This document shows, one piece after another, positions 48 to 44,063 of a stretch of 64,000 nucleotides of DNA (position 1 is its first letter; each line of letters starts with the position of its first letter). The DNA comes from Lingula anatina (lineage: Eukaryota; Animalia; Brachiopoda). The stretch covers positions 4,584,587 through 4,648,586 of the forward strand of contig CM120648.1 of assembly GCA_051362555.1 (NCBI GenBank), written 5' to 3'. The position numbers and the translations under genes are program-made. The notes below the pieces were generated by a model, which saw nothing but the letters and a program-made list of their open reading frames with translations, did no database searches and was not told the origin of the DNA.

Positions 48-869
48 ATGCTATCAACCGAGAGGGAAGATGATGAATATTTCAAATATAGTACGGATTT
101 AAGACGAAATGATGAATATTTTGGAGTACCGGTAGCAAGGGGATTTTTACCAACTTCAGGGTTTTTCTTTTTAAAATACGATCGATTCAAAGCTCAAAGG
201 TCATTAATCCAATATTTTTATTAAGCCTGCCTGCTGAGTGCATGACAAGTATTACGCACGTAGTACATGTATATGGTTAACCTGTATCTCTAGGGCATAT
301 AATAATCACACATTAAACAATGTTTATTTTCCCTTTAATAATTACAATATATAACAAAATCTCGTAATACCAGTATCATTTAATCCGTCACGGGTTTGTT
401 AAATGAAAAGCATGAATTATCCTTTTGATTGATTTTATCTGACCACATTTCAGAGAACACCGCCTCTGATGCAAGCCCAAAGGATGGCCAATGCGAACGC
501 CGAGGGCGACGCCAGCTTTCTCGCACAGTTACTAGCTGTGCGGCAGTCAGGGGGAGGAGCTGGTGTAGGGGTAGGTATCTTACTTGGTCAAGTTAAAAAA
601 TTTAATTTAAAGGGAACTGTAAAGATATTATTCTTTTTTAATCCAAAACAAAATTGTTACCTTAATTAATTGATAACCATGTGCATGACTGAACTGAGTT
701 ATATAAGCTAAGCAGATTATTCAAAAGAATCAGTAAAAACTCATGTTTCTGCAAAATATAATGATTGAACATTTTATATGCCTTACACAGCTTTAAAATT
801 GGACATTTTTTCTCTTTACTTTAATGCCATTACTTTTTAATAAAAATAACCCTTTCACTGTGTATTTAA

Positions 870-926
<57 letters not shown>

Positions 927-3900
927 ATAACATAAAAGTAGCGACAGAGAAGCATTATAACTTTCATCACAACAGTGAAAGTAGAATAGAAGCTATAGGA
1001 AGGAATGTGCCATTAAATATTTTTTTCATGATTTCAGGGAGTATTTGAGAGAATTAACGGACTCGAAGAAGCAGTCACGATCCTTCAGTCAGATATGGTA
1101 GATGCTAAAAAACAGTTACTGGGTGCGCATGCGCAGATTATGAGTTTTTTTTAAATAATGCATCATTTCTCAATTGAAAGTGAAAGTCATAAGCAAGGCA
1201 TTGATAAATAAAGAGAGCGCCTTGTATGGAAACAGTACATTTTAATTTTCAAAAGAATATTTTGGCTATAGGGGGCAGTGCCATCTTCCAACCAGGAGAA
1301 ACCTTAAGGCATTTACAGACATCATAAATTTACCACGAACTTTTTTATATTGACGTTTGTGCATATACGTACCGTTTTTATTATTTATTTTATTAATTAT
1401 TTTTTTTAATTGTTGTGTATGTGTGTGAAAGAGGGAGAGAGAGAAAGAGAGAGAAAGAGAAAGGGAGCATGTTATATTTTTCAGCTATTCGCAAAAAAAA
1501 AAAAAAAAAAAAATTAAGAGACAATAACTCACAGAATAATCCTTTCAGAGATGACTTTGTCCCTAGAGAATATTAAGCGTGACAACGATAACCCCAAATT
1601 GGATCTTGAAATGCAAGAATTACGACAAAGAGTTCACGGACTGGAAACCCAGCTCGACACTTGGGGGCATTTTGAAGACGAATCCATTCGAAGCATACCG
1701 GATCAATTGGAGGGCCTTGGTGACTGTGACATTAACGATGGAGATAGGATTGCCAGTACAGAAGGTGGGGATTTATACTACAATTAAGTTTCACATCTAT
1801 TATTTCCTTCCTGGGTGATTTCATTCAGTCTTATCCGGCCATCGTGGTCAAATTGTTAAGCATGACAATGTTATTGTCGAACATTTTTCTTGAATCTTAA
1901 CAGTCATTCAGGCTTTCTGCACGTAGGTGGATGGTACATGCGTAAGTACGTTCAAATGTTTCTCAAAACGACGACCAATTCATCTTATTTAACTCTAAAC
2001 CAGCTGCACAAGCTAAAATGTTTTATTGTGAAATTGTTTCGTTTTCTTTTTATCGCAGATATCTACACAGCTGAGATGGGAAGTGAAGCAAAAAAGGATG
2101 ACACGGAGGTGACAGGAGCTAACAAGGGGGAACCTGACACTGAGGAGAAGTTTTCTGCCATATTAAAACGTACATATTTATATACATAACAAAATAATGT
2201 TTCATTCATTTAAATAAAACTGGTGCAATACATTTATAATTTTTAACAGATCTCACGTCAGGTCCATGTAAATTTTTATCACTTTCTATCAAATCTTACA
2301 TTATATTGTGAATGACTGTCTAGATTAGCTAAATATCGTCATATGCTAGTGTTATGTGCTTTTAATTTTTAGGACCAATGACAGAAAAGTCGAAGAAAGT
2401 TCTTGTTGATTGCATCGGCCTTCTTGGAAACCATCCAGACCTGAACAGCGTAATTGGAGTACTGTTTGAAAACAGCATCCTCTCCTCGTCTGAGTTGATG
2501 CGTTTAGAATCCGTACAGACGACAGCTGAACAGAGTAAAATATTACTAACGAAGATATTGCCCGCGAAGGCAGAAGGAGCATTCTGGGGTTTTCGAAAAG
2601 CTTTGGCTTCATTACCCCATACAGAATTTTTGATTGGTATCTTGGACGATAAATTACGTACGTATGTTATATTTCTTTTTAGCTAACATAAGTCCATTTT
2701 AATCGATATCGGCTTAATTTATGCGTTAAATAGCATATGAGTTACAAAAACATAACGAGCATGGAAAATATGTAGAAATATGCTATATATTAAAATCAAC
2801 CTCAGCACAGTAATAAATAATGCACGCAAGAACCAACACAAAAACTGAATAATTCTAATAATTTTGAAGTTACGTGTACATCCGTTATGTCTCGAACATT
2901 GCCATTCATCAATGTTTCAAAAAAGAATGCTGCTGTTAAAACAACTTTTATTTAACGTAGACAATTACTTGATTTAACGATTTAACAAATTATTTGACCA
3001 AATATCTGTATGCCAAGTACCGGACACTTTCATTCCCCTCAGGTTGTATCTTCCTGGAACTAACAGCTGAGGTCAAGAGAGCATTTGGGAGGTCAGTAAG
3101 GAACGCCCCTGCGGCCAGTCAGGAAATCCATCAACAATTGCAAAAGTTAACCCCCGAATTGGTGCAGGTCATGGAGCACTTGGGCCTCATTGTATCCCGA
3201 ATAAGACCCGGAAGTATCAAAATCGATCTCGTATTTTGGAATATTGAACAGCTGGACAGGTTTTGGACATGGCTTCACAGCAGACAGAGGTCGCCACTGT
3301 CTGATGCCTTGTCTCGCGTGATTTTGACGGATGAGGTTCGTGGTTTAGTGCCAGACGATGAGCTAGTGGTCATGCTTAGTTCTTCTCTGGATTGGAATGG
3401 CTATATGGCAGCAAGAAAACGTCTTCTAGCAGGTAATAGCTTTAAAATTACAGGGAATTATACCATTACCATCATTCCATGAGTATATGGTAGTGTTTTA
3501 CCTGGTGGTGGTTTGTGTCGTTTCTACATGTATTTACTTCTGCCTTAATTATTAATATGGACCAAACTGTATATCTGGATGTACAATCATACATACATAC
3601 ATAATTATATCCAATTTAAAAACTGCCTCTTTATGTTGTTGAAAAATAGCTTTCATTACATTTAATATAGAAAGCGTTTTTTTATTTTTGTTAAAGATAC
3701 CTTGTCCAAAGTGGCCAGGGACGACTTATACTTTGAATGCCAAAAACTGCACACAGAGGTAAAGATCAGTCCATATCTGACCGTCTTTGGTGACGTCACC
3801 CGATACTCTGACGTATCCCCCAAGGACCTGGTGCGCCTGGCCTGCGCCAACGGGTACCCGGATCTCATTCCTAGACTTCAGTCTAATTTCCCGCTGGAGT

Positions 3901-6900
3901 TGTCCGATTTCACAGCGAAAGACGTCAGATTGGAGCGTGCTCGCGAGTTGGCCAGAATACGAGAGAAAATGCACCGCGTTAAAGTATCCAAATTGATTGA
4001 CAGAATCGGAAAGAAAGATGCTGAAATCAGTTCACTTGAAGGGGAATTAAAAGAAGTGCGGTTGAAGTGTATTTCCCTTGAAGTTGCATTGGAAGATCAA
4101 AGTGACAGGGGTTTGCGGACTGTTTTAGAAAATAAAAATGCTGAAATTGCACGTATTAAAAAAATGTATGATGAAGAAAAGAAAAAAGCGACGAAGTTAG
4201 AGTCTGATCTTGACTTGGCAAACAAAGAGAAAGCTGGCTTGATGAAGCAACTTCATTCGAAATCTATTGGTTTTCAAACTGATCGAGCGAATCAGCCAAA
4301 CGTTCTGGTTGGTAAAGCACCATTACAGGACGAAGAGCAAATACTTGTCAATTTTAACGAAGAAGCCCTACAGGATGTTGGTAGATCACGCGAAGGTTTG
4401 GGAAGAAAGCAGTCGCGGGAACAATTGACAAATATCGCAAAAGGAGAAGTTACCAGTGAATATCCACATGCGTCGTCTAATATTGATGATCCTCGTGAAG
4501 ATTCCAAGAGCCCCCAAGCTGAGGCGAGCCTGTCCCAAAATGAGCAACCGTTGACTGCCCAGGCAGAGAAAACTACCGCTCCATTGACAGCAACTCAAAG
4601 TAAGATCCTGATATACCATATTCTGGATACAGCATCTTAGTTCTTGCTCACCCTACGTGGACAAGATATGGTTGTATGCAACAGTGGCGGATTTAGGGGG
4701 GTCAGAAGGTCCGGATCCTCCTTTCAGCTCCCGAAAAAAATCACACTATTATTTCCTTGTTGAAATTAAAATTCTGACTAGTTGAATTAATAGTTATAAA
4801 CCGTAAATGGCATCGTTTGTCCAGAACCCCAGGCTAAGGGGGCGGGAGTTGGTTTCGTATCCGAGGCCTATCACGCTTAAGATAACGGACCCATTCAAAT
4901 AATCCTGGATCCGCCCCTGTGTAACGACCAATAGGAATTTTAGTATTTTAAATCTATTTCTTAACCATTTTGACTGAGGCTAGGAGATGGGTATGGTAAA
5001 AATTTTAGTATTTTAAATCTATTTCTTAACCATTTTGACTGAGGCTAGGAGATGGGTATGGTAAAAATGTTTGCTTCGTCGCTTTTTGACTACTTGCCCA
5101 ACTCTTAACAATAACAAAATGAGTAATTCTCAAAATTATTCTTTTCAGTTGTGAGTAATATCTCATGTTGTGAGTAATACCTCATGGACTGTTGTTCTTT
5201 TTCCTTATAGATAGAGGAAGAAACGTTGTACGTCCAGACGGAAGGTCTAACGGTCTGGACACTGTGCTCCTGTTGGACACCTCTGGGAGCATGGCCGGAG
5301 AGGCCTTTGACCAGATGATACAGGCCGTGAAAAGTATCCTGGACAGTAGGTGGCCCTTTTAACACATTCTGTCATATTAAACCGAATATATGTGTTTTTG
5401 TAACTATATAGCACAATGACTTGGCCTTTGAAGACTCTCCTTGTTCAAGGTGTCCTATCCTAGATTTAAACCGCCAAATCGGATTTTGTCTGGAAAAAAG
5501 CAATTTCTCACACGAATAAATGGCTTATGTTCAAAATGTCATTCGTGAGGTGCATTTTCACTTCTTCCTCTCCAGATATGGAGTACAGTGCTGACATCTA
5601 TGGTTTCACTGAGAACGTCTCTCTCATTACTGTTGGCGGATATAGACAGTCACGTGTCCTAGTATCCCTGTCATGTGACTATCAAAGAGCCAGGAGGATT
5701 CTGGGTACGTGAGGTGAAATTTAAATTATAAATCAAAACGAAAAACAATGTTGATACCCAAGCGTCACTGCGGCTCTAGACAAACCTCAGTTCTCTTACA
5801 CGTAAATAATGTTTTTTTTTCCTGTGAATTCTATTTTATTAGTAGGCCTGCGTGCAACTCAAGCTACGGCGCCTCTACCATAATTAGGCATTTCGTTACG
5901 CGAAATAATCTTAGTATTTCACTTTTTTAAACATTCACACTTTCGTATTTCGATACGCCATGCATTTCCAAGGTACGACGAGATATATACAACATGAAAA
6001 TACAACATAATATTGATTATCATTAAATCTTTCAGAAACTTTAAAATCTGAGGGAATGTCACCGTTAGCACCTGCCATTCAGGAAGCACAGAGGGAAATA
6101 CAAAGGAACGGTAGGTACCGGAATATGCTTACTGGTGGGTGTGGGTGTTTTTGCTTTTTAATTTAGGCAATTATGGATTTTAATAAAAATTGGTTCTGTA
6201 CTTGTCTATTCTTTTGGTAAAAACGTGTAGGTATTAATTTATTAGGGAATTCTATGTAAGGTTGCATGATTATTTGTAAATTGGAAGCACTTTCATAAGT
6301 CATTAAATTTATCAATCAGTTTATAATCTTGTTGCAAACGAACTATCCAAGTTTATTTGAAGGGGGGTCTGCAGATGCGAAGCCGAATCCCCCCTCCCCC
6401 CTTGGCCAAAAATTTGTGGTATTTTAAAGGGAGAACCGTGCCATATGGTGCTGTTTAGAACTTTGAATCAGCAAGTCAAAATTCTAATTTGAAGAGGGAA
6501 CCTTTTGTGTGATTATTTTTTGAGAAATCGAAAGGGGAGTCAGGACCCTCCTCTAAATCCGCCACTGCGATCGTCCTCATAAATAATGGAGTCACGTATG
6601 TTCACATCCAATGTTCGTCCATATTTCAATATGCTGTACGTTCTGCAGGTGCTTCACTCCACGTGTCCGGCCGCAAGGTGGCGCCCCGTATTTACGTATT
6701 TACAGACGGCATACCAAGTGACGAAGATGAATATCGTACCTCTGACCTTACGGAGGGAAATATGGCCGTGAGTTGCACTTGTTTTATTTTAGGATACAGC
6801 ATTTAGTTATTTTAAAGATTGGTTTTGTTAAATTTGCTTTTAGAACATGGGAACGCAGTAAACTCTTCGATCTACGTATATATATATATAGTAATGGGAA

Positions 6901-8573
6901 AAAATGCTATATTATAATTCATTTTTTTTATAATCAGATGACCATGCTTATGGCAGAACGCGAATTTTAGGGAAACAAATTTCTATTTTAAATGGTGCAC
7001 TCCTTTTGTTACGTTACCTTCGGCAACAGTCTATATATATATATAATGCTGAAAGAAAATTAAGCAATGGTATTTTTCTGTAGGCTAAATACAAAACGAT
7101 GACAGCAGTTCAGGTGTACCAAGATGGAGACCACAGGAATAAAGCCGAAATAAGTTTTGTTGGTTGTGGATCTAAAGTTGATACGGTGAGTGAAATGTGA
7201 GACCGGAACATTCTACATCTTAAACGTAATTGATATGTTACAGTGACAAGAAAGAATATAACATGCAGCGTGTGTGGTTGTGTGTGTGCGTGCTATGTGT
7301 GTGTGTGTGTGTGTGTGTGTGCATATGTATGCACGTGATGTTTATCATTCGTGAATAAAAGAGATGTACAGCGTAATTCACATTGTTTTGTTCCATTCCA
7401 CTTGAAGATATTTTTGGAGTCCGCCTCCAAGATAGGGAAAGGAAAGTATATGCGAGCAGACGACCCAGAGGCTGTGGACAGAATTGGAGGATACTACCGA
7501 AGAGTAGTAAGTCAATATATATATTTTTAAATATTTACCCATATTTACCCAAAGAATCAATCTATTAGACATCATTGTATTTAATATAGTATTTAAGATA
7601 GTTGTTTAAGGTTACCAATCAGAAATTCCTTGCACGGCCATTTTTTTAATACTCTTAAAAGATTTCATTGGGATCGATGAAAGTCATGAAAAAAAAATAG
7701 GCTAAACGTCATTTGACAAATTCCGGCTGGGGAAAAAGATTCTTTACTTATTTATATGATATAAAGAGTGTACGTTTTTAAACTACATGTAAGTCGACAT
7801 TTCGTAATAAAATATATGATGATACCGGTTTTAAAGTGCAATGTAGGTACATGGAAAATTAGTTAAACATGTTGAATAATTGCAATCTACATAATGTTTC
7901 AGGTATGGGTTTACCGATTTGCTGCTCCTTTTCGAGGTATGGGAATAAAGGGTCCTATTCTTTTAGAGAAATTATGCCCGTAACAAATGTACTTTTGTAA
8001 AACGTCTAAAAATATTTAAGCATGAAAAAGTACAAAATTATCGGACAAAATTATCGACAGTAAAAAAGACAGTAAAGAAAGAACGTATTTGAAATAATGT
8101 TTGACTGTCAGTTACATCAACAGTGATGCATGTTGAATAAGATATTATTTGAAGTCTCTTTTCTTTTAGAGAAATGATGCCCGCTACAAATATAGTTTTT
8201 GTAAAGCCTCTAAAAATATTATAAGCATGAAAAAGTATAATTATTGACTGTCAGTTTTATCGTGCAGATACGTCCACCATGAAGCAGTTGGCAGCCCAGG
8301 ATAAGGAAACGTTCCGAAACTGGCTGACGGCCACGAAGTCCGGGGAGATCAACCAGAAGGACCTAAGCGAATTTGATGTGGTAATGTTGAATGTTTTTTT
8401 CCTTCAGATTATTGCATAATGGTTTCGGTTTGATTATTCTATTTCCAAAACACTGCAAGATTATGAAAATAATGCAGAGTAATGGTGGTGTGTAGGTCTT
8501 TGAAAGGTGTGAACTTCAACAGGAATTTTAAGCATTCGTAAGTAAAAAAGTGCGATTTTACAGCCGATGCATA

Positions 8574-8621
<48 letters not shown>

Positions 8622-11600
8622 AGAACGAAATGTACAGCATGCTCGTTGCACTGGCTACGGAGAAAAGAGCGACTGAGAGATACGACGGGTCGGACACTGA
8701 CTCAGACCCCTCCCTTAAAGTGGAACTGCCCCTGGGGAGTAGGGTCAGGCGGGGGCCGGACTGGGCGGGGCAGTCCGAAGACGCCGATGGACCCGGAACA
8801 GTGGTCGAACATCAGAAAGGAAGTATGTGACACAGCCTTTAGATCAAATAATACGCGTTGGGCACCTAAATTGCAAAATATAATTTGTCAAATCGCAATT
8901 TTTTTTACATATACTCAGATATTCTTTGAATTTTACTGATTGTAAGTGAAATTGTGTAGCTATCTGGCCCCATTTAACTCTCCACGTGACTTTGTAATAA
9001 AGACAAGAGAATTAAGATATAAAACCAACCCCCTTTCCTCTAAATTTTAGGAAAAGTACTTGTGAAATGGGACTACACAGACGGCATTGGGGTCTACAGA
9101 TTTGGTGAAAACAACTGCTATGACGTCTTGCCTACAGACGAACCCAGAATCCTCCGCGCAGATCAGTTGATCGATGTTGGTGTGAAAGTTGTAAGAGGTA
9201 CATTTTGCTGTCATATTTAGAATGCACGTGCACCTCTAATTAGATATAGATCTGTGTAGCGGTTTACGAAATGTAATATAATTCATATAATTAACCATAT
9301 TGCAAGATGAGGGTGGCATCATGGCATGGAAGATAACAAACTACATTGCACCAATTGCTTGTTAAGATATACCTGTTCGTACCTTTTTTGGGTGTTAAGA
9401 CAGTGGTAATAAAACTGTAATAACAGTCTATTCACTCAAGGGTGTTAGTTCTACGTTGTATGCTTAATAGCCATTTTGTCGCCAGTCATTTTTCAAAATT
9501 CTTTGAACTATATTTTGTTTCCTAAAGGCCCAGATTGGGAATGGGGAGACCAAGATGGCGGCGAGGGGAACGTTGGAACCGTGTATAAGGTTGAACAGAG
9601 AGGAGCTGTTTGGGTATGACAAATATCTTTATGTGGCCTATGTTTTTAAATTTTTTGATTATATTCCTTCTGTATAACAAAAAAAAGGAACATTAGACAA
9701 AAAATGAAAGATTAACGGAATGTCGTCTACATTTTTGTCTTGGCATTTTCAATCACCTTTTTTAAGTGTTTTTAAAATATATCTTTTATTATTACCGAAA
9801 ACTATTTGAAATCTTGAACGGCCACTGTTTCAACGGACCAGCAATTTTTCAACGTGTTGCTACTCTATTTCACAGGTCCAGTGGCCAAATGGTTCTTACA
9901 ACATGTACCGATATGGACACGAAGGACTGATTGATCTGACGATCGTGTGCGTATATGTTGACTTTATCTTGTATTGCCCTAACAATCCCCTTCCCTTTTA
10001 ACTACGGCACAGGCTATTAGTTCTATAGACCGTAAAATGTTTATTTTATTTTTTGTGAACATTTTGCAAATCGAGGCCATTTGTAAGGTAGTTTCTATAA
10101 AGTTGCTACAATCAATAGGGTGTATACTTATATCCAGGAGCACATTTACTATTGTGAAAAATTAAGTCATATGTCAACAAAACCTGTCATAATTTCAGAA
10201 ACAGTGACGCATTCTTAAGGGTGGTGAGATAATTATTTTGAGTGATTTTATTTGTTTTTTATGTTAGTGACGTAGTTTCATCTGACAACAACGTGCAACC
10301 GAAGACTCTAGCCAATGACGGTGGGATGCCTAATACTAGCCAAGAAAGTACGATAAGCACAGCCTTTAATATACTTTAGTGTGCCTTAATTTACTTTGAT
10401 ATTTGATATATTTGTGCGTATTATCTAAATACATGTAAGCTTATAATTGCCCCTGACTGCTGTTCATTTTAATTCTGAAGACGAAAGTAAAACGGCTTAT
10501 GAAAAGCTTTGTATGAAGTCATAGATATCAATCAGTTGCCATCCCAGCAAAAGTCCACCTTACTATATGATACAAACCTGTACAGAGTTGTGGCTGCTGC
10601 TGTGCTGGTGACCTGCCGATCATGTGTAATGGCGTAATCCCTGTGAAAGACCTTACCTACCTGTATAAATAAATTATGGATGGAAATTGACACGTATTAT
10701 TGGTTGATATGCATTATATTTCATTTTATTATGGTGGTGATATGTTCACTTTTTTTTTTTTTTTTTTCAAGATGGCCATGCTTGGTGGCAATGGAACCGC
10801 AATGGATCATGGGTATTGTACCCTGTGAATGTGAACATGAGGTTGGAGCAGGAGTACCAAGCAAACCCCAGGTCTGGAGTGGAAGTAGAGATCGACTCCG
10901 TCAGGTACAGTGCAGTGAAATAAAGTTACGTGGACGTAAATCAAAATAAGAGTTTAATGGAAAAAAGCATGACGTCATTATGATGTCATGATGACGTCAT
11001 GATGTAATTTTGCATCTAGATAGCATAATTTACCAATTTTTTATTATCAGCATACATATTTATAATTTAGTTGAATGGTAATGTGGGTCAAAAAGAACTT
11101 GCACCAGGAAACGAATGTTTTGTTGTTTTAAAATGGTCTGTGTTATCTAGCAACTCATGAAAAGAAAGCTTTGCATTTTAGTTTATAAAAATAGATTAAG
11201 ATGAATAAGGAAAAAAAGAATCCAGCATAAAGATAAATATATGCATGACTATTTGCTTACTTTTTATTTTTTTGATTTATTTCTCTGTGCCTACATTTTG
11301 TACGTGGTTTACGAGTATGAATAATCAGAATCTGGGGAAAACATGATTGCCTTCAGCTGAAACAAAACTAATAGTAACATTGAACAGAATTTAGAGTAAA
11401 ACAGGTATTTTTATTTATTTCAATCTAGACGGTATGTTGACTTTCAAAACCTTAAGGACCTATGTATGGACACTGGAGAGGAGTTTGAGATTCAGCGTTC
11501 AGGTATGATGGAAAATAAGTTGAAAATACAATATTTACGTGGTCTACTGTGGCTTCTCTCTTTCAGTTTTTGCCTTACTCTCTGTCTCTCTCTCCCTCTC

Positions 11601-11754
11601 TCTCTCCTTGCGTTTTAGGAAGATAGAATTAGGAGTAATAAACTGTTATTGCACTGTTAATATTTCCCTTTTTGTTACAAGTATTTACACCATATATGTT
11701 ATATTTTCAGTTTTCACAGAAGACGAGTATGTAGCTGCATTGTCCACCACGTGA
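48..11754 (+). CDS. Multi-exon gene, ~1,276 aa: CARD-like + TRADD-N-like + coiled coil + vWA + 2x MIB/HERC2 + WWE domain protein
   Basis: 24 GT-AG exons with consistent phases: 48-131, 454-570, 1038-1122, 1549-1764, 2059-2169, 2373-2657, 3043-3432, 3697-4599, 5211-5345, 5576-5704, 6036-6110, 6649-6767, 7084-7185, 7408-7506, 7903-7936, 8268-8380, 8624-8822, 9051-9197, 9528-9613, 9876-9946, 10268-10347, 10772-10904, 11429-11502, 11711-11754 (sum 3831 nt, ends TGA). Start at ATG 48 is tentative; the gene could begin upstream of the window. Confidence 0.75.
870..924. repeat. (ATT)n microsatellite
   Basis: Direct read; source of the spurious poly-Leu ORF 824..1048. Confidence 0.95.
2373..2657 (+). 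other. Exon encoding a CARD-like death-fold domain of gene 1
   Basis: [16 protein letters not shown]...[55 protein letters not shown] matches the CARD pattern (L..L....IL...E...I......+...LL..L..KG..AF..F..AL); single phase 1-1 exon. Confidence 0.7.
3043..3432 (+). other. Exon encoding a TRADD-N-like domain of gene 1
   Basis: [47 protein letters not shown] resembles the GS(I/L)....L..LW......L...L...L.TDE pattern of TRADD-N-like domains next to death folds in invertebrate proteins; single phase 1-1 exon. Confidence 0.55.
4682..4919 (-). mobile_element. MITE family A copy 1 (CAG[T/G]GGCGGAT terminal inverted repeats)
   Basis: Ends CAGTGGCGGATTTAGG ... CCTGGATCCGCCCCTG; the interior is the reverse complement of the copies at 6361 and 43605. 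Confidence 0.75.
4937..5068. repeat. Tandem duplication of ~65 bp in intron
   Basis: attttagtattttaaatctatttcttaaccattttgactgaggctaggagatgggtatggtaaaa occurs twice head-to-tail. Confidence 0.9.
5211..7506 (+). other. von Willebrand factor A (vWA) domain exons of gene 1
   Basis: [13 protein letters not shown] (DxSxS MIDAS), [26 protein letters not shown] across six exons. Confidence 0.85.
6361..6567 (+). mobile_element. MITE family A copy 2 (5' truncated)
   Basis: Shares ggtatttta...gtgccat.tggt.ctgtttagaact...agtcaaaattctaattt.aagaggg with the 43605 copy; ends taaatccgccactg. Confidence 0.7.
8575..8620. repeat. (ATT)n microsatellite abutting a splice acceptor
   Basis: Direct read; followed by aaag|AACGAA exon start. 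Confidence 0.9.
8624..9946 (+). other. Two tandem MIB/HERC2 domains of gene 1
   Basis: [10 protein letters not shown]...DGPGTV...VKWD...YRFG...YDV and [25 protein letters not shown]...VQWPNG...[11 protein letters not shown]. Confidence 0.9.
10772..11502 (+). other. WWE domain exons of gene 1
   Basis: [26 protein letters not shown]...RRYVDFQNL...TGEEFEIQR fits the WWE consensus (W.W....W..Y.......LE..Y ... Y.VDF..M.Q....TG..R.I.R). Confidence 0.8.
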
Positions 11755-14063: not shown

Positions 14064-17000
14064 ATGACGGGAAACACAAACAGTGGAAACACTAGCGCAG
14101 GTAATTCTTATATTAATATTTCCCCTTTATTAAACTATACACATTTCTAAGTGTTCTATAAATAGGCCTATAGTGGCACATTGTCCACGTCCAAACTATG
14201 TAGGCCTACCATATTTTTAAAATGAGATATGAACATCATCGTGGTGAAATTAAGTTAGCTAATTTCGTTTTATTAGTTCTCTCTGAACTGAACACCAGCC
14301 ACAGTGGCCCAGATGATGGCCCAAGGTACACAAAGGAGGCACTGGGTACCAAGGGTGGATATCGGACCGGCCATTATAGCGCCGCCACAGGTAACGGCAG
14401 TTCACTTCCTGTATCGCAATATCTAAATATATGAAACGCTCCAGTAGGGGCCTACTTGCTCGGGTATGTAAATAAGTAGGCTATAGGCCTACAAAAAGTA
14501 TTGAATATATACTTAAAAAACATTGGTTAATAATGCATTTCACACTCCAGTTATGCCTGGATCGTCTTATCTTACTTTAAGTTTTACCAATTTTCAAAAC
14601 ACCTATCTCAAATAATCTCTAGTAACGTTATGACCTATATGTAGGCTCTACGCTTGAAGCAGGAAACAGCATCCACAATTAGAATGTTCTCAGATTTACC
14701 ACCGAAATTCCGTTTAAATGCATTTTCTCGATATCTACCCTTTCAGTTCAATAGGAATTCCTATTTAATCTGATGTTATCTATGTGTTTCAAAGAAAATG
14801 AGTACACGGTTCCGAGAAAACTGCCTCCCATAATTAACAGAAGTGTAGATGACGTTGGTGCAGCCAAGACAGGACAGGCTACATCAGTGAAGAAGAGGAC
14901 ACTGGTAGTTGTTACCGTGACCTTGACGCTGATTGCCCTTGGAATCCTAGGAGCTTTCCTGGCCAGGGAATTCACAGGTTGCAAGTTAACACTCTCAGAT
15001 TATTAGATACTTTATAGCTGCAAAATTTTGTAGGCCTACCATAACAATTTATACAATTTGTTCAAAATGGGCACTGGCAATTGCAATGATTTTCTTGGAG
15101 ACAACTGACCTATAGTCAGTGACCATTTGTCTTGATTGCAACCACTAGATTGTCAAGCATGTTTTAAAATCCAAACAGAAGTATCCCATCCAAACATCCC
15201 ATTTTGAATTATCAATCAATTCTTTAGCTTCCAGAGCAATTGCTGTAAACACGAACACAACAGAGCGCCCCGGAAAATTCAAGGGAAGCTCACCCTCAAC
15301 AACGATGTATTTCATAACGGCACATTCAACACTGAGAACAAAAACTCAAAGCACTACCACCGGTGACGTAACGAAACGAATAAATCCCGGTAAGATTCAG
15401 AGGGTGAGAGGTTTTAAGGCTATAATTGAATCCAGATCAAAGATAAAAGATTTTACTATTGCCACAAATAAATAAAATGCAAAGACCTTTTTAGAGGAAG
15501 GATTGGAGGTGCAATAAGATCCTTGTATAATACTTTGTTACTTCTATTTTCATTGGAAAACCGCGGGTCATCACTAGCAAATGGACAGCAACCGACACCT
15601 TTTCACTTGTTGTCAAACTGTCCCTCAAGTGCATATTAAATGAACAAACAAATGAGTAAAAAAAATTAATATATGTAGATAAGAAAGAATAACTGATCTT
15701 AATATTGTACTTTTTTCATATTTTCCATTCTGGAGCCTGCACACATAACGGTACGATGGCCTGGGTGATGACAAACGTGTACTTCAACGATGGCACGTTT
15801 CTCTCAGCGGAATTGAAACACAGCCTGGACGACTGCGTTGTGAAATGCCGAAATGACAAGGCATGCAAGGGCGGCACGTACCACTCGCCGTCTTATAGTT
15901 GTTACATACTGGATGAAGTAAGACAGACAGGTATAATGTGTGCTGTCCTGTCAATGAGTGAAGACATGCTGTTCATAATTGTACCTTGTTTGTGAAGGTG
16001 TAAATCGTGGAATCAATCTAAATCTCCCTATTACTCCAGGTTACAGCGTTGGCTGGAGTGCCTTCGTGATGGCGCCGGAATGTGGCTGTGAAATGATGGA
16101 GTTCCAAAATTTATCCCTGTTCCGTATTTATGAATTCATTACAGGTAAGGGTATTTTACAGCTATAATCAAACTGAATTAGAGTTGCAGTACTTTGGTAA
16201 TATGGATTATTTACAAATACAGTGCATGTTCTTATGTGTTATTTCTATATTTCTGTAAGTTTTTAAACGTTACGTTAAGCATTCTACGACCTCGCCATAC
16301 TGACTGAATTTTTTCTCCCTTTTTAAACATGTTCAGGATTTGTCTTATGTGCATTTTTATATATCTAATTTAATGGTACTTTAGGCATTCCATGATCATG
16401 CTATTCTGGTCGAAGATATTTTTTCAGTTTAAAATATGTTCAAGGGAAGGGTCTGGAGGTTCGACAACAATCGCTTTTTTGGTCGGAAATGGTCTCCTTG
16501 GAATCAATGTTTAATCAATGTTCTAAAAACATGTTTTCCATGTCACAAATAAGATCAACTTAAAGGGGGAGGGGGGGGGGCAAAGGGTCAATTTTTCAAA
16601 ATAAGACCCCCTTTGAAATTACCAGATACAGCCCTGACAATGGCACATGTATGTTTGTATGTATATGCTACGTGTTAAATCCACCTATCCTTTAAAGATG
16701 TGTATATGCTACGTGTTAAATGCACCTATCCTTTAAAGATGTGTATATGTATCTTTGTAGAGGTATCGTACGTGTCGTACTTCGCCGAGACAGCACAGAA
16801 TTGCTCTCAATCATGCAGAGTGTCTGCTACCTGCGAAATGGCCGACTTTTACCCCCCAGGAAAGGTGAACGTGTAAACATTTCAAAAATAGTTTTCCATT
16901 CATCATCTACATAAAAATCCGCTCTATAGGAAAATAATACAAGATGTGTAAACTTAATCTATTTCATTTGAACGGTTTGTCATGTTTTCTCTGTGTTGGA

Positions 17001-17148
17001 ACGCTTCTATACTCAGTTATATATCTCTTTCAAGAATTGCTCCCATTATGAGGGCTGGCCATTGCTTATTGCTCCCGCAGAATATGGAGAAACGTTCTAC
17101 TTGAAAAGTGCGGGATGTTATAATATGACTGAAGACGTCAACCATTGA
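14064..17148 (+). CDS. Type II membrane protein with Thr-rich stalk and two PAN/apple-like domains (paralog A)
   Basis: Exons 14064-14100, 14277-14390, 14795-14977 (KKR + signal anchor), 15228-15389 (Thr/Ser-rich), 15736-15930 (C...C.....C.G......C), 16040-16144, 16761-16864, 17035-17148; phases consistent; start tentative. Confidence 0.7.
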
Positions 17149-18883
17149 CACTTCTCCGATTACATGCACATGGAACTTGACAGTGTGTTATCATCTCCTT
17201 TCGGAATATTTCCGCAATTTGCCGAGTAGTTTATATATTGCTCCAATGCACCATATTCACCGCACTACGTACATTTTTGCTCCGGGCACGGCTTGTGTAT
17301 GCTTTACAATATAGAAATATATAGAAACGGATGTTTGATTCGATTTGCAATTTCTTGGTTTCGCGACACTGAAGAAAATACAGTCTGCAGAAAAAAAACA
17401 CGAAAAACTAAACGTGAAATCATGTGATTAAAAGAAAAAAATTTCAAATTATTGAAAAGTGTTAGGCATGTAGAGATCTATGAATAGTCGGTCGACAAGA
17501 CAGATCTATAGATTTTCGGTACTTCTCAATATCTTATAGATTAATATAGAGGTTTATGTGTGGCAAGTCAGCTTTATATAACTGAAATATATCATGTATT
17601 ATGTTATGAAAAGTTTGAGAGAGAGAGACATAAAGGGTTGTCCGTTTGACAAAAATTGATCAACTGTAGGAAAAAAGTAAGTTTTCTATACACTGTTAAT
17701 CATAGATAGAAAGATATAGATTTCATAGGTGAATGAAATGATACAATAAAAATTCCAAGACCAAAGTGAGCTTGTAAAATTCCATGTGAACAAGTAACCA
17801 ACTCTTGTAGTTGTGATCCCAAGATGTGGTAAACAACTAATACTAGTATCTGTACAGATATAGTAATATAAAGGAGCTTTCAATAAGGAATTGTACTAGT
17901 GCGGTATAATACGAAATACTTCAAAGATTTCATTGCATTTAAATACCTTTCCAAGAACTAATTTAATTGTGTAAATTCGTGAATGGTGGATCTCGAATAA
18001 ATTGAAATGCTGTTAGAAATCATTTTCTTTATATGATTAATCAATTTGATATTCCAATCGAATAATTATTCTTCTGTTTACATGATACTCAAATGATCCA
18101 ATACTTTTAAGCAAGCTCTTCCTTATATTTCAATTTTGTCTAAACCGGCCATTTTGACCCATGGAACTAATCAAAACAAATTTGAAATGACTACCGTAGG
18201 CCAATATGTCAGTCCTGGCTCGAATTTTTGGTTTTTATCTGTAATTTGGTTGTGGGCAGAAAAGTTAGGTTCACCACACACCCCTCAACGACCTTTGCGG
18301 TTTAATCACGTCAATGAATTACAATCTATTATCTCTTACAATAAAATGGCTTTATTCAACCAATGAGAAATATACATACACCTAATTTGTGTATACATAT
18401 CACAAGCTCGATAGGTGTGACATAATAAACCAACGCATGGCACTGTTATATTTATGTTGCTATAACTTATACATTTGTTATATTCGTACGAAGAAAAGCG
18501 ACACTTTTTCTCATTTAAAATTAAGATTACTTGGAATCCTATTCAGGTATATTTAGAGTCCAATTTGGCTGCTTTTTCTCTCTGTCACGTTTTATGCAAC
18601 ATCCACCGTGATTCACGAGTTCATTGTATATCAATGTGAACACGGTATGCCACGCCCAATTGACATTGCTAGCAATTAACTAGCAAGGGCCATTTACAAC
18701 ACTAACCAATATGTCATTGCCATATGGTTAGTACAGCAAGGTCAGTCGGAGTATTGGGATTAGCATATATGGGACGAATGTCACCTGTAAAAAGTACTCG
18801 AGAACGGACTACGGTTCTTAGTAGACTACCATCCCTGTCATACTGGTACAACTTCAAAAACCGCTGTTACATGTGAGCGATCG

Positions 18884-21800
18884 CTAGCACCCGCGGCTTT
18901 TGACGTAAAAGTTTTCTTCCGCCGTACCGAATCCAATGAATGGCCAAGTGTTGTAGCTGTGACATTTCTGAAACACAATCAAACAGTCATAAATGATACC
19001 TCATCGCATTTTTAAATAAGGAGTAACTTTGCCCATTATTGTTGATGGTCATTTACACTGGAAATAGTTCAATGTATATTTTGTAATGTTCTTCATGAAA
19101 AAAAATGATACATAAACCAATAAGGCTATACTATCCACTACACTACAGCTCGTTTAACCTCCCTATCAGGCCCACAGTTTGATTTTTCACTTGATATTCA
19201 AAGATATTCTCTGGTTAATTCATGACACTTTTCTCAACACAGTACGCGTTAACTAGAGCCATGTTTGTATCAGAATTCCCGCTGGAGAGAAATGTGCACA
19301 GCTAGTGAACAGCCAGAAAAAACATCTGTGGAGAAAAATCTCTCTGTGACCTTGTCGAAGTATAGTTTTCACCATAATATAACGATTTTCATTGCAACAA
19401 ATGCATCCTTATACATGTGCGCCGGAAAAATGTACATACAGTATGCTAGCATATTCTAAGAATGCAAGATGTCACTAGGCTACAAAATAACCAAATAATT
19501 TTGGCATGTAACCCCCCTTTAAAAACTGGATGCAGTTTATTTGAAGAAATAACTTCCTTCTCGGTTTCTCGCATGAACTAATGTGGTATTTGCAATGATA
19601 GCAGACTGTCTTTGACAACGTTTCTTTAAATTACACACCTGGCAAAATTTAACGATCGTGGTTTTCTGTACCGTTACCTTATCAATGGGATTGAACTGTG
19701 TCAAGAGGCAGAGAGGTTCCGCCAGACAAGCCTCTGGACAGTCATCTGGCTTACTGGCTGGAAATGACCACTTGTTGACACCTGTGTAAAAATAGAAGGC
19801 GAGTTCAGATATCTGACTTACTATGGCAGCGCGGCAATACAGTTATTAGGCCTATAAACCGCAGCGACATTTTAGAAACGATAAAAGACACACATATTAT
19901 ACCATTTATGCACACACATATACACGAGCGAGCGCTGCGCATGCACATAAATACACGCACATAGGATAATGCATTGACTATAAATTGCAACATCATTAAA
20001 ATACGATAATGAGCATCATCCGAGAAATCCGGATGTCTCGTGAATTACGTCGCGTATTTTAGGCATACATATTATTGCAAAACACGACGCACGCATGCAC
20101 GTAAACACACATGCATGAAAATACAGCTTCTATAATTTGCAGCATTTACACATTTCAGTAATATGCAGCAGTTATACATGTACATGTACACCAATATCGC
20201 ACGTGCGTGCACACACGCATTCTCACCCGCACACGCACACAAGCACGCATGGGCATGTCTACACGTCGTGCATTACCTGGTGGATATGAACCATGAACGT
20301 AGAGGGTCATGCCAGTGTGCTTCTCCATTTCGCAGTTACATTCCGATGACTTTATGATGGTTATCACGCCGACATCGGTATCTGGAATTAATTTTTTTCT
20401 ATCATAACATTCCTATTTGGTAAAATAATTATTGTTCCGGCTTGTGAGATTGAAATGGCTCACGCTGTTAGTATTATGTAGCCAGACTGACTGCAAATGT
20501 ACAATAAAAAGTTAGAGGGATGGGAGGAAGTGTTCGTCCCCTCAAATACTTCCAGGGGGTCGCACTCTGAAACCGAACGACGATGTATATGTACACAGAG
20601 TAAACTAATTATAACCAACAACACGGATATATTAATAAATGGAAAACCAAACAAGAAATAGATCAATCAAAGAAAAAATAATAATTTAACTGTAATAAAA
20701 TCAAAACTTGTAATCAATTAGTGCATAATTCTCTCCATACACGTGGACTGCACTCCGGCCAAGCCCATGCTACACACCATCCCCGTGATAAAGTAGACCC
20801 CGGCACCGCACTGACGGTCGCTGGCACATCTCTGCTTACAGTTCTCAAAGGTGAGGCCGTAAATCAACCTGTGCTCGACGAAGTCGAAGTTCATAAGCAT
20901 CCCAGGTATCTCGTGGAACCCGTATGTACAGCCAACTGAATGAAGAACAAAAAGAAGGTCATAAAAGGATAAGGGCGATTTTGCATTTGGAAAATGACGA
21001 ATAATGATGTTCATTGATCGATTGGTTTGCCATTTGTGGTTAGATATTCTGTTTCTGACAAACCTGCATATACTATAAAGCTCTGTAAATTAAATCTTGA
21101 CACCTGAATACAGCTATGATTTGGAAGGTTGGTCGCAAATCGTCGACAGAATAGACGTGGCAAATGTTCATGTTTCACCTGTTTTCTATAATAAAAGATC
21201 CTTTAATAAAATGATAAATACTTTTAAGCCTTTGATTTTGCCTCTGTTTATTCTCTGACTATTTTGCTCCTTATACTGCATTTTGATAATGGGACAGTGT
21301 GTGAACCCCTAAAGTAGAGCGGGAGTAGGGGAGGGGGGAGGTGTGCGTGTTCTAGCTACGATCCATTGTATTTGGTTGTTATAGGAATTAAATTCCTTAA
21401 AACAGTTGTCTACTGGTGATAGTTCACCAAGGTTCAGTGTCCTCACTTTGTGTCAGAAACTTTCTATCCTACTTGCGGTATGCTGCCTTGGAAATAATAA
21501 AGACGCATTAAATTCTGTGACCATTTTCATCCAATCTCCACAAGAAAGACACATATGAGCTTACCTTAATGCAACAATTTGGCTTCATTACTTTTCATTA
21601 ATTCACGTTTGTACCTACCAGTGGTGGATTGCTCCATTGTCGATTTTACGAGAGTAGTGGTATTTGGTTCTGCAGGATCCACAGTAAGTGTGGTAGTGTG
21701 AGGAAGTCCAAAATTAGCCGTGGTATGGTTCTGCCCTTTAAAGGTGCCAGACACAGGGGCCGTAGTTATTTTGGCATGACCTGTTCTAAGTTCGGTAGAT

Positions 21801-23011
21801 TGAGGAACTCCAAAACCAGCCGTAGTAAGGTGCTGTTCTTTAAAGGTGCCAGTCCCGGAGGACTGGCGAGCACTTGGTCCAGGGTTCGCTGTGGTAATGG
21901 AGTGATTGCTCAGTTCCGCTGTCGACTTCTGTGCGGTTGTGTGGTTGCCGTTAATTTGGTGTGTTGTGTGGTGTTCTTCAGTGTTGGTCGTGTCGTACCA
22001 ATTGGTTACAGTTGAGGTTTGTGCCCCTGTGACTTGTACACTGGCGCTGCTGTGTGAAATATCTGGCACTGTGCCGGCTTCTGCGGCCTCAATGGTACCG
22101 TTTTTCTTCTTGACGTCCACTAAAATTGGTTTCTTTGCTGGAAACCCCGGTACATACTTTTTAGTTATAGGTCACTAAAATACAACCGACTTAAACATGA
22201 ACCAATGCATCTAAAATGTATCTGCTTATTGCTTAATCCGTTTTAACTTACAACTAAAATACTTGTGAAAGTACCTGTCGTGTCACCTATCCGTTATGGC
22301 CTATGTAATATTGTACAAGTTTCGTTCAACAAAGACGGCTAACGATGGTGTATAAAACATAATAGACCAGATATCTAACTTTGTCTTTATTGAAAGTCAA
22401 CATCTAGCTATGGTTCATTGTATGGAGGGTGAAGACCTGTTAGCACGTGTCTGTGGTATTGATATGCGCATTGATTGATTAGTTACAATAATTAATATAT
22501 CCATTTACAAAAGCCAAGAAAAAATCCGTGAGTACAAGTTCCGGATGAAAAAGTACAAAACATTAACCCTTACGAACCTCTAAATGCCACTCCCAACACC
22601 ACGCCCAGCACAACAACAGGAACTAACAACACAATTAAAATGATCATAGTTTTCCTCTTGATTCTTATTGTAGTGTCACTGGACGCCCGAATTTTTTTCA
22701 TGGTGGTTTGTCCTTCTTTCCTCCCATTGGTCTCCGTGGCTACAAATATGGCAAGTAAATAGCATAGTTGGCTAGGGAGTAAATCATTTCCTAAACAACA
22801 GCATCTTTTACAGGGAACAATACCGTACCACTCTCAAACATCTTAAACCAATCAACGAAATTTAACACAACTGTCTACAGATCTAAAATTCTTGCTGAAT
22901 AGTAAAAAACTTAAATTGCAAGTAAATGCAGAAATGAATTACATAAGATAATTTCACAATTCATGAAACATTGTATCTACCTTTAGCGCCATGACGTGAT
23001 GACTCCTTCAT
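18884..23011 (-). CDS. Type II membrane protein with mucin-like stalk and two PAN/apple-like domains (paralog B)
   Basis: Exons 23011-22981, 22739-22578 (KRK + IILIVLLVPVVVLGVVLGVAF anchor), 22119-21619 (Thr-rich), 20935-20741, 20381-20277, 19781-19678, 18967-18884; the PAN exons have the same lengths (195/105/104) as paralog A; first exon tentative. Confidence 0.72.
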
Positions 23012-25171
23012 GTTCACAAGTGACGTCAGATTCTTGTTTCTTTTTCTGTTTTTTTTTTACCTGCTCAGTGAAATGGGTGCAATTACGTCTCCTTGCATCA
23101 CTTTCACGATGCATAAACTTCCACTGCAACAGCAGCATCAACTATGGTTGAACTGACATCGTGTTATTAGTGTAACATCTGCATTTACTCCCTTTTCAAT
23201 CACGAAATGGGTTTTGCCTCATGGCGGTTTAGAGTTTCCTATTCTATCAAAGCGTCCACATGGCATCACTTCATTCAAATATATAGAAATGTTGGGTAAG
23301 TTTTCTTATAAAAGATGATAGGAATATGGAAAATCCTTGTTCTAATTTTAATAGACAGATGACGTGTTGTATTTTGTTGTGTTTGGCTGGGCATTTGCAC
23401 TGATTGAACCAAAGACTTCAGATATAATCAAAATAACCCCCTTTAGGGACCATCCATTCTTATCATCATTTGCTCAAGTCTACAAAGAGTAGACTTTTTT
23501 CCAGACTCCTTCTCCCCTTCAGAGAATACAAAATGAAAAGCTAAAAATGATGGCCTTTGAGAGCAATTTGATTCAACATTTTAATCATTTTTTAAAAGCG
23601 CGCACGGGGCATTACCCCAACCCCTGAGCGTACGGTTGGTGGATGACCAGGGATGTTGACTATGAAAGCACTTCATTTGTGGAGAAAATGTAAAATATAT
23701 GAAAAAAATCCCATAGGGTTCTACAATGTATATATAGTGATAGAAACCAATGTTCAAATCACATTGGCAACTAAATTGGGCTAATATCAGTCTTAAGCAT
23801 TAAATATGGATAAAAGTGTCAAATTAAAGAAAATTATATCATACAAAATTATCATAAGGACATAACCTTTATTTGTTGGAAATGGTAGAGTGAATGCACC
23901 CAGAATACGCCAAAATTTTCATTTTCTATTTTCTAATTTTATTTTAAAGATAAAAGTTTAAAAGGATTTTTGGTGTCAGTGCATGTGCTAGTAGTTTGTC
24001 TCATTCAGATTTAAATATAGTCCAAGGTAATACTGTATATCATCTGCCCTAGCGGTAAAGTGGCCTTGTGTGACTGCAGCTATGGCAACCGTCACCAGTA
24101 TCAAAATATTAATCTGAAATGAATATTAAACAGTATAAGTGTGGCATGATACCGATCATATCATAAATCACTCCCTGCTCGACTCCTTTGCTAGAATTAA
24201 ATGTAATAAAACGGTACAGACTTGCATGTCTGTTCTGTGTGCGCGTGTGCATACAGTTTGTATTTGTGTTTGTTACGCATCTTTACCCCCCTCCCCTTTG
24301 ATCCTGGATTGAAACCGGGTTTCAACACAGTTAACAGACCCTTAGGGTTGCTCCACGAGAGTCGAGATAATTAACTCTATGGGATGTGAGGAGATCTCAG
24401 GGTTGGTGAAAGTCAAAAGGTGTACGTGTAAAACTGCCTTGTGACGTCAGTCAAAACCTAACCGGTGTAACTTAGTCCCACACTTAACACTGGCACCGGA
24501 AGTCAGGGCCACATGGTCACCGCCGATAACGTCTTTCATCCACGCGATCTTTTCGATATAACTTACCCCTCTTCCTGTACACTACTACATGTAATGGTGG
24601 CAAAGACATTGTTATTCATGTTTCCGGGTTGCTAAGGGAACCGTGGATACCGGACTGTGTGTAGCTATATGTGGCTGGGGCTGCATTAATTATTGTGGAG
24701 GGACGTTTTAGGACTGTCGCTGTCTAACTTAGGTGATGTCTATTGTAAGTTCTGTTTGCATGGAAATGGTTCAATTTATGTCTACAGGGCGTGTAAGTGT
24801 CGCGGGGTTAATATAATGGAAATAGCCCAAATTTATTACTTCGTGAGAAAAAGTGAGGTCCGTTATTTGCAACCGTATTTTCAAAGGAGCTCCGTTCCTT
24901 GACGGATGCAGTCTTTCTATGGGACGATCAGATATACCAGTACATCGATCTCGAAGTGGACGAGGAAGATTTTATGTTGCGTACATTGACACCGAAGTAC
25001 ATAAACAATAGCAATCTGAGAATTCTCATGTAAGGTCAATTTGATCGATGTAGCACAACGGGGTGAAAAGGAAAAAGTCTGCAACATCACCAGTGTCACA
25101 TTTAACAGCGGTGAGAACAATTTAAGCAGCGTGTGGATAGGGCCTATATCAAAATGTTCACAAGAACTCAA

Positions 25172-29386: not shown

Positions 29387-29707
29387 AAAGAATAATGAAG
29401 GAGGTTTCAGGAGTAAATCTCGTTCAGGAGAAGACACAGACGTAATTTTCCAATATTCACATTTCAGGCCCACATTGCTCTCTACGTCCTGGGTGTGAGT
29501 GCTGGAATCCTGCTCGTCCTGTGTGTGATATTGCTGTGGATAGTGTGCCTCCTCTCCTTCTCCTGCTGCCAGTGCTGCGCATGCTGCTGGTACAAGGACC
29601 TTCCGCGAGGAAAAGGAAACCGAAGCGTGAACCACGAGATCCAGACGTTCGACGCGACCAACGGAGTGAGAAACAAATATGATAGTGAATCATCGACCAC
29701 TTTTTGA
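25172..29707 (+). CDS. Carboxylesterase/cholinesterase-fold type I membrane protein, non-catalytic (neuroligin/CLAM-like)
   Basis: Exons 25172-25710, 26036-27031, 27307-27482, 28246-28293, 28613-28638, 29468-29707; signal peptide, FLGVPYA, EDCLYLN, NYRLG, GNYGMWDQVAALKWV; TM helix, Cys-rich juxtamembrane segment, C-terminus SSTTF. Confidence 0.88.
27801..28020 (-). mobile_element. MITE family B copy 1 (PIF/Harbinger-like)
   Basis: Reverse complement of 30173-30397; imperfect TIRs containing agatcgatct; TTA flanks. Confidence 0.75.
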
Positions 29708-42544: not shown

Positions 42545-43604
42545 TTCTGGCATATACAAATAATAATAATGCAAATCGGCCATATGATATGACAAATCAT
42601 ATCCAAGCGATTGTACGGTAATGTGACGAACGGCAGACGAGTATTAGGGCTTAAAAATTGATTTAGAATAAAAAATGTGCCAATGTACTTTCACACTTAC
42701 CAAGTCAGATTTAAATCAGTTCTAGTCAACATACATTTTTCCTGTATAATACACAGACAGCGGCAATTTTGTTCCGTGAGATTTGACAATCATTAGGAAG
42801 TATCAATACCCTAGATTATAACTGCTGATTGTAACGAATAAAGGTATAGTCTCTTGAAATAATTACTAAGTACTATTTTGACGTTTATCCCACCAGATGA
42901 CGACAAACAAGATTCAATCAAAATCGTTTTAAATGAAATGTTAATACAGTATGTGAAGCTTTCAGAATATGGCTATCTTTGGAATTTACTCTGAACTATT
43001 TTTCAATATACAAATAATTTACCTCTCATAATTGAATGTCTCAGAGGCGATCTGACGTACTCATTGCGCTTACAAAAATAAAATAAAATGATTTAAGTTG
43101 CTTTTATTCTTGCTTTTTGAAACATCCTTGGAACGTCCCCATATCTCGATGAAATTATGGTATCGTGGGCGGATCATTTATTTATTTTTATGTACAGACA
43201 AAGATTTTTTCATTTATCTATTTATTTTGGATAGGAAATAATATTTTTTACAATTGCCATTTTTATTCAAATATACCATGTTTACAACATTGAAATTGCA
43301 TTGAATGCATAACTACAGTGACATGCAGGATCATGTATTTAGTCTCATAATGTTTGGCCTGCATGAACTTTGGTATTCCAAATGGAAATATCAGGACCCA
43401 TTACTTATACACAGTAGGCCTCCTTTTATTTTAAACATTTTTGTACTGTCACGCATTCAAATGCACTCACTAACACAACGAACGCAGTAATTAAGCGTTT
43501 AAATTACCAAAATACTAATTGAAATATTACACGTTCGGCACGTGTGATACCGGTAGGCCTAGTTTAAAAATGATGAGTTACCACGTTTAGTTATTTATCA
43601 TTAT

Positions 43605-43880
43605 CAGGGGCGGATCCAGGATCGTTTGAAAGGGGGAGGGGAATTAGGAATGACAGGCCGCGGATGCGAAGCCAACCCTCGCCTCCTTCCCCTCCCCATT
43701 GGGGTGGGGTTATTTATGGTATTTTAGAAGTCGAACGGTGCCATTTGGTACTGTTTAGAACTACTGTATGATTCAACTAGTCAAAATTCTAATTTCAAGA
43801 GGGGAGCATTGGTGGGATTTTTTTCAGAAATCGAAGGGGGGTCAGGACACCCCTGACACCCCCCCTTTAATCCGCCAATG
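43605..43880 (+). mobile_element. MITE family A copy 3
   Basis: CAGGGGCGGATCCAGG ... TTTAATCCGCCAATG ends, flanked by AT on both sides; interior homologous to copies 1 and 2. Confidence 0.75.
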
Positions 43881-44020
43881 ATTATTTACCCACTCACGGT
43901 AGGTTATAAGCCAAGATGCACGGTGCAAAAAAAGGAAACATATAATTACTTTCATTTTCTCCGGAAAATCATCAGCTAAATCTACATACAGAAGTTTCCC
44001 TCCTGATCAACTCAGCGAAA

Positions 44021-44063
<43 letters not shown>

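Follow-up and report, generated by a model that had tools for sequence, protein, structure and literature searches.

LOC106162821 of the brachiopod Lingula anatina is a real, single spliced gene, and its product is read here, with a probability of roughly 55%, as a cytosolic, non-catalytic adaptor in innate immunity or cell death, in which a cassette of CARD and TRADD-N exons would have been grafted onto an older protein. The gene lies in a 64,000-nucleotide stretch of contig CM120648.1 (GenBank assembly GCA_051362555.1, forward strand, 4,584,587-4,648,586), which is termed the window. The six domains proposed for it in a sequence-only reading of the window, i.e., CARD, TRADD-N, coiled coil, vWA, paired MIB/HERC2 and WWE, are upheld in that order: vWA, both MIB/HERC2 repeats and WWE by Pfam, the CARD by profile and fold, and TRADD-N indirectly.

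Gene structure and transcription

The exon chain rebuilt from splice signals comprises 23 exons between 454 and 11754, joined via 22 GT-AG introns into 1,248 codons without an internal stop and closed by a stop codon at 11752-11754. A public protein of 1,238 amino acids (P0002) equals the chain spliced from the ATG at 484 except at 3 residues, and the gene observation is therefore not a matter of chance. P0002 was found in the same cluster as XP_023931976.1 (855 amino acids; L. anatina LOC106162821), the one protein returned among 669 candidates by an exon query of 3045-3431. In the rest of the window (12000-64000), no second copy of either half of the gene was found.

RNA evidence comes from raw-read runs under the same species label, 6 of 9 of which were mapped, and 17 of the 22 introns are listed in the reads. 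The joint 4599/5211, across which a single transcript had been proposed, is crossed by reads in X7 (6), X8 (6) and X9 (5) but by none in X5; it and the joint 3432/3697, also in RNA reads, flank the exon at 3697-4599. At several listed sites, the sequence of X5 reads agrees with the window, and 8 of the joints shown have 1-4 reads each from this run; X1 consists almost only of repeat-derived reads. Among the joints shown, the introns without listed reads are 570/1038, 2657/3043, 6110/6649, 8380/8624 and 10347/10772, all five of which are used by public gene models (predictions). Reads extend past the stop codon to about 12150, with an AATAAA-type signal at 12135.

RefSeq splits this gene into XP_023931976.1 and the 311-residue LOC112042165, which is identical to residues 928-1238. 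Among the RNA joints listed, none leads into 6938-6970, the last exon of XP_023931976.1, and reads skip it via 6767/7084. The read joints 6767/7084, 7185/7408, 7506/7903 and 7936/8268 span the RefSeq break, and the reads therefore bridge the split; also, P0291 (XP_013416921.1) is a single chain across it. A pair of neighboring genes, or a model joined in error, as implied by the two RefSeq entries, is highly improbable even though reads list no joint for 5 of the 22 introns and short reads cannot display a whole transcript, because reads join 4599/5211 and every step across the break, and because the paralogs P0003-P0005 are single chains over the full architecture. The analysis corrects a split gene model and shows an uncharacterised Lingula family to be transcribed as one unit.

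The true start exon is located outside the window. Seven to 10 X7 reads enter position 454 from another 5' piece, which does not occur in the window even if 3 mismatches are allowed and translates in frame to the same six-residue start as P0291, a sister copy on another scaffold with 93-97% identity. Of the 24 exons and about 1,276 residues counted in the sequence-only reading, the 23 exons from 454 onward stand, whereas its first exon has no read support. This exon was taken to be 48-131, because 1,276 residues equal the 1,248 codons plus 28, and was rejected as the region 1-410 has no depth across 6 runs and the donor is weak. In an older gene model (P0293), a paralog with this architecture is fused to the gene on its immediate upstream side, and the gene therefore appears to belong to a tandem cluster.

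Domains of the C-terminal half

Pfam recognizes two MIB_HERC2 domains (97.6 bits), VWA_2 (53.4 bits) and WWE (29.1 bits, with a cut-off of 21.1) in P0002, and the predicted model of this half (predicted local distance difference test score, pLDDT, 81.2) matches vWA domains and Mind bomb. The MIB/HERC2 repeats are 38% and 52% identical to those of MIB2, the second repeat being the one at 52%, and MIB1 is matched by profile at E = 7e-29. As the sequence-only reading had stated, catalytic domains are missing: Pfam detects none of the RING, HECT, kinase and PARP families in P0002 at an E-value of 1 or below. The protein also contains no C-x2-C pair and no 19-residue hydrophobic stretch above 1.2.

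The metal ion-dependent adhesion site (MIDAS) of the vWA is complete, consisting of D715 (5276), S717, S719, S789 (6059) and D825 (6705). Its first Asp and Ser are present in 78 of 92 family rows (14 being gaps) and its last Asp in 80 of 92, and the site is conserved from sponge to Lingula. The protein thus has a vWA with a MIDAS, two MIB/HERC2 domains and a WWE, in this order.

The CARD and the TRADD-N-like domain

The CARD is confirmed by profile and predicted fold. Its exon alone gives a Pfam E-value of 0.088, but a 4-sequence profile matches the RAIDD CARD at E = 3.5e-6 as well as the CARDs of CED-3 and APAF-1; the predicted model superimposes on the APAF-1 CARD with a Z of 14.4 and a root-mean-square deviation of 1.6 over 91 residues, and the first 37 rows of the comparison are all CARD entries (mean pLDDT of the model, 66.5). 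The 165 residues before the CARD resemble a coiled coil and an acidic linker.

The exon directly after this death fold has a predicted order of strand-helix-strand-strand-helices-strand, with G318-S319 in the turn between predicted strands 2 and 3; this order is compatible with the RRM-like fold of TRADD-N. A Tiny-Ser motif in the beta2-beta3 turn is given as a hallmark of TRADD-N in the relevant sections of Kaur et al. (2021; PMC8195603), and the Gly-Ser turn is kept in 5 of 5 aligned paralogs. A TRADD-N profile aligns with XP_013414794.1 (hhalign, 95.9%; hidden Markov model E = 1.2e-12, 148 sequences), which the tabulated source data of the same paper list as DED+TRADDN-DEDD2+HEPN; these data place LOC106162821 itself in the DEDD2 clade. 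The TRADD-N identity of the exon at 3043-3432 thus has indirect support. The CARD and the TRADD-N-like domain each occupy one phase 1-1 exon, which is consistent with exon shuffling.

Origin of the family

Homology searches, each scoring about 8,000 candidates, detected homologs of the C-terminal half in oysters, mussels, scallops, clams, abalone, amphioxus, hemichordates, a soft coral and a sponge. Stand-alone relatives (e.g., XP_065843372.1 and XP_070574612.1) are homologous across the whole C-terminal 530 residues, and 10 compact homologs begin directly at the vWA. These sequences indicate that the vWA-MIB-MIB-WWE half is an old stand-alone protein, present from sponge to amphioxus and expanded in molluscs. 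A CARD-TRADD-N profile matches 6 of the 92 family rows, all from Lingula; among the best 150 of its 720 matches in a 1.84-billion library, the C-terminal module is represented in part in 3 of 148 new proteins, again all from Lingula. In an IQ-TREE analysis of 36 chosen rows, for which the sponge was assumed as root, the modules from Lingula are united in a single clade (100/100) that groups with molluscs (100/100), apart from the compact forms, and a FastTree analysis of 84 rows agrees with this grouping. Overall, the distribution makes it likely that the CARD-TRADD-N exon cassette was grafted onto the older protein. In both bivalves and Lingula, the family has expanded repeatedly within the lineage and has diverged fast.

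No description of the stand-alone family was found in the open-licence literature, and in the Atlas the sponge homolog belongs to automatically named clusters only. A table row of PMC8382680 places a Mib-herc2 orthogroup among bivalve gene families.

The WWE pocket

In all solved WWE complexes of E3 ligases, adenine is contacted by a Gln and phosphate by a Tyr and an Arg, alongside a stacking Trp (Münzker et al. 2024; PMC11269756). The HUWE1 residues are Trp1619 (stacking), Gln1667, Tyr1658 and Arg1676, with Asn1669 nearby. When positions 3-63 of the family WWE profile are aligned to HUWE1 1614-1674, a register also obtained with TRIP12 and DTX1, W1163 of the present protein is kept and the Tyr, Gln, Asn and Arg positions are R1201, D1210, C1212 and F1219. 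Residues were counted in 54 rows, from which 10 gapped rows were dropped, leaving 5 complete Lingula rows and 39 others. The Lingula rows have Trp in 5, Tyr in 1, and Gln, Asn and Arg in none, whereas the other rows have Trp in 31, Tyr in 21, Gln in 19, Asn in 20 and Arg in 3. All five residues occur together in 3 of the 39 (sponge, Ptychodera and one further row), which are the 3 with Arg. P0227, P0219 and P0215 are compact vWA-MIB-MIB-WWE proteins (sponge, hemichordate) with the full ADP-ribose pocket.

With four of five pocket residues replaced, this protein is probably not a poly-ADP-ribose sensor; canonical ADP-ribose binding by it is unlikely, whereas binding by the compact relatives is plausible, judging from pocket residues. 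This bears on the model of the sequence-only reading, in which a reader of poly-ADP-ribose would relay its signal to CARD and TRAF proteins. The WWE does pass Pfam and folds confidently in prediction, the stacking Trp is kept, and sponge and hemichordate relatives keep the whole pocket; but the Tyr, Gln and Arg that contact adenine or phosphate in all solved complexes are replaced by Arg, Asp and Phe, and Gln, Asn or Arg is kept in none of the five complete Lingula WWEs. In addition, Kaur et al. (2021; PMC8195603) state that these TRADD-N domains do not universally pair with MATH domains, and no evidence for TRAF binding by this protein emerged. The model is thus improbable: the pocket argues against its coupling to ADP-ribosylation, its TRAF branch is unsupported, and the ADP-ribose hypothesis becomes unlikely for this gene copy. 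The older vWA-MIB-MIB-WWE family with an intact pocket is a better target than LOC106162821.

Proposed function and alternatives

An adaptor or scaffold, as first proposed, is still the best reading, although coupling to poly-ADP-ribose and TRAF is not supported by the sequence. In such an adaptor, the CARD would recruit the protein to another CARD protein or filament and the coiled coil would dimerize it, while the Gly-Ser turn of TRADD-N may work as a switch. Such a switch is put forward by Kaur et al. (2021), who propose that TRADD-N keeps flanking domains inactive until a signal arrives (PMC8195603). The vWA would use a metal ion to hold an acidic residue of its partner, and the MIB/HERC2 pair would bind short peptide motifs of client proteins; clients would thus be brought to the CARD platform, with ubiquitin-ligase or protease activity supplied by other proteins. 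The WWE would serve protein contacts or be vestigial, and would not read poly-ADP-ribose.

Several points weigh against this reading. The immune role is suggested by domain company only, and the literature found holds no experiment on the function of any family member. The hidden Markov model support expected for CARD, TRADD-N and WWE was obtained for the WWE (Pfam) and the CARD (RAIDD profile), whereas TRADD_N and TRADD-like_N have no Pfam match in this protein at an E-value of 1 or below; the solved TRADD-N structure 1f3v comes at rank 49 with E = 0.53, and CARD entries took up a wider fold search. The CARDs of paralogs pass the Pfam cut-off, but this copy is more diverged (13.3 bits versus 27.2 and 42.4). 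The reads are short, so that joints are displayed one by one and not on one full-length molecule, and nearly every read of X7-X9 differs from the window at many sites (about 5-10%), which points to a divergent population or the sister copy as their source. The P0291 model runs from the CARD directly to the vWA, without both phase 1-1 exons for TRADD-N and the coiled coil, which reflects real skipping, a deletion or an assembly gap. Also, human MIB2 offers a loose analogy, because its MIB-ZZ-MIB region binds the RIPK1 linker in a manner that requires the ZZ finger (binding experiments in PMC5912950), which is absent here.

A tentative extension of the adaptor reading, possible rather than probable, is that vWA-MIB-MIB-WWE would be an ancient animal defence module, which in sponges and hemichordates would act as an enzyme-free ADP-ribose reader passing ADP-ribosylated clients to a metal-gripped partner. 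Lingula would have swapped the inputs (pocket lost, CARD-TRADD-N gained) with the same output via CARD assembly. If this were true, both inputs could be tested directly with the paired natural variants.

Alternatively, the protein could be a decoy whose RING-less MIB/HERC2 pair sequesters substrates of Mind bomb or HECTD1 type together with CARD partners, thereby dampening signalling. The lack of a ligase domain, the 52% identity of the second repeat to that of MIB2 and the diverged CARD would agree with such a role, but a pure decoy would not need the MIDAS that has been kept from sponge to Lingula, and the stand-alone ancestors likewise lack a ligase domain, so that this explanation appears unlikely. 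Less credible still, the vWA could serve an AAA+ ATPase as a co-chaperone handle, in the manner of MoxR-vWA defence systems, with the other domains delivering clients for remodelling. The MIDAS is intact, a helical region, at most a candidate vWA-L, follows the vWA directly, and bacterial systems that combine a vWA, a helical linker and effectors appear in the survey of Kaur et al. (2021; PMC8195603); however, no AAA+ ATPase open reading frame of at least 90 amino acids was recognized by eye in the rest of the window, and there is no known partner. A developmental regulator of Notch trafficking, suggested by the occurrence of MIB/HERC2 (Mind bomb) and WWE (Deltex) in Notch-pathway ligases and by MIB1 and DTX1 as the nearest solved sequences, is very unlikely, since lineage-specific expansion, fast divergence and the CARD-TRADD-N fusion better fit conflict genes.

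Features of the window

Exons and domains of LOC106162821 (window positions; joints are those listed in RNA reads)
Position	Strand	Feature
454..570	+	First exon inside the window; ATG 484 used by public models; frame open at 5' end
1038..1122	+	Exon, N-terminal coiled coil; read-joined to 1549 with 21 extra in-frame bases
1549..1764	+	Exon, end of N-terminal coiled coil and acidic linker; joint 1764/2059 in reads
2059..2169	+	Exon, disordered linker; both joints in reads
2373..2657	+	CARD; one phase 1-1 exon; residues about 169-261 of P0002
3043..3432	+	TRADD-N-like domain (DEDD2 clade, indirect support); one phase 1-1 exon; Gly-Ser turn 3210-3215
3697..4599	+	Phase 1-1 exon: small helical region (low confidence), coiled coil (about 3948-4262), disordered linker
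5211..7936	+	vWA over 7 exons: 5211-5345, 5576-5704, 6036-6110, 6649-6767, 7084-7185, 7408-7506, 7903-7936; 5 of 6 internal joints in reads
6938..6970	+	Alternative terminal exon of XP_023931976.1 (855 amino acids); cuts vWA short
8268..8380	+	Exon, helical region after vWA; joint 7936/8268 in reads; Met 8279 starts LOC112042165
8624..9197	+	First MIB/HERC2 (8729-9136); exons 8624-8822, 9051-9197; joint 8822/9051 in reads
9179..9946	+	Second MIB/HERC2: end of 9051-9197, then 9528-9613, 9876-9946; joints in reads
10268..10347	+	Exon, disordered linker; low pLDDT; joint 9946/10268 in reads
10772..11502	+	WWE; exons 10772-10904, 11429-11502
11711..11754	+	Last coding exon and stop

At the intron 1123-1548, X8 and X9 reads carry 21 extra in-frame bases, and P0291 has 7 extra residues there; the 21-base micro-exon has no match in this intron at up to 3 mismatches. 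The intron contains poly-A and GA repeats. Upstream of window position 1, the tandem paralog (P0201, P0292, P0293) is apparently also split in RefSeq. Dispersed intronic repeats at 4685-4920 and 6360-6570 draw many partial reads from elsewhere and are likely small mobile elements, and a direct tandem duplication of about 60 bases lies at 4946-5066, inside the intron 4600-5210.

The neighboring genes were recognized by eye. Cysteine-rich PAN/Apple-like exons on both strands and a Thr-rich mucin-like exon lie at 15100-22200, followed by a gene of carboxylesterase or neuroligin type whose product is probably membrane-anchored (25115-27035 and 29417-29707, + strand), a single long open reading frame resembling carbohydrate sulfotransferases (33686-34663, - strand), a region at 39967-54015 (+ strand) with Gfo/Idh/MocA oxidoreductase-like exons (about 40000) and SCO1-like genes (46153 and 53686), and ABCB/MDR-type transporter exons (55537-56897, - strand). 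Two copies of a short-unit repeat, open in many frames, occupy 58839-59322 and 61018-61414 and likely represent a satellite or Helitron-like element.

Comparison with known systems

The closest system is the Lingula expansion of DEDD2-clade TRADD-N proteins. In the portions of Kaur, Iyer, Burroughs and Aravind (2021; eLife, PMC8195603) that concern them, such expansions are reported in marine invertebrates, with 33 brachiopod copies, and the modules fused to the brachiopod members (HEPN, RIG-I-like, AIG) suggest an immune context. Fig. 4 source data 1 of that paper, covered here for Lingula places 1-60 of 77, tabulates the present architecture, with no accompanying experiments, for the Lingula paralogs XP_013388646.1, XP_013417662.1, XP_013421821.1 and XP_013421834.1. 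The architecture is therefore already known from a computational catalogue and is not new, contrary to the sequence-only reading. The table gives LOC106162821 without MIB and WWE and with a FIIND, for which P0002 has no Pfam match at an E-value of 1 or below; in the main text of PMC8195603, the term 'WWE' does not occur and there is no pocket analysis.

The stand-alone vWA-MIB/HERC2x2(-WWE) proteins share the MIDAS with LOC106162821 but have no CARD or TRADD-N, the compact forms starting at the vWA. MIB1, MIB2 and HECTD1 share the MIB/HERC2 repeats, whereas the present protein lacks the ZZ finger, REP, ankyrin, RING and HECT, and its two repeats are adjacent. RNF146, HUWE1, TRIP12, DTX1 and PARP11 have in common with it the WWE fold and the stacking Trp; unlike the poly-ADP-ribose-binding WWE proteins, it has replaced the phosphate Tyr and Arg and the adenine Gln, and has no ligase or PARP domain. 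Human TRADD and DEDD2 resemble it in that a death-fold domain adjoins a TRADD-N with a Gly-Ser turn, but the death fold of the Lingula protein is a CARD, not a Death domain or DED, and is accompanied by a long C-terminal module.

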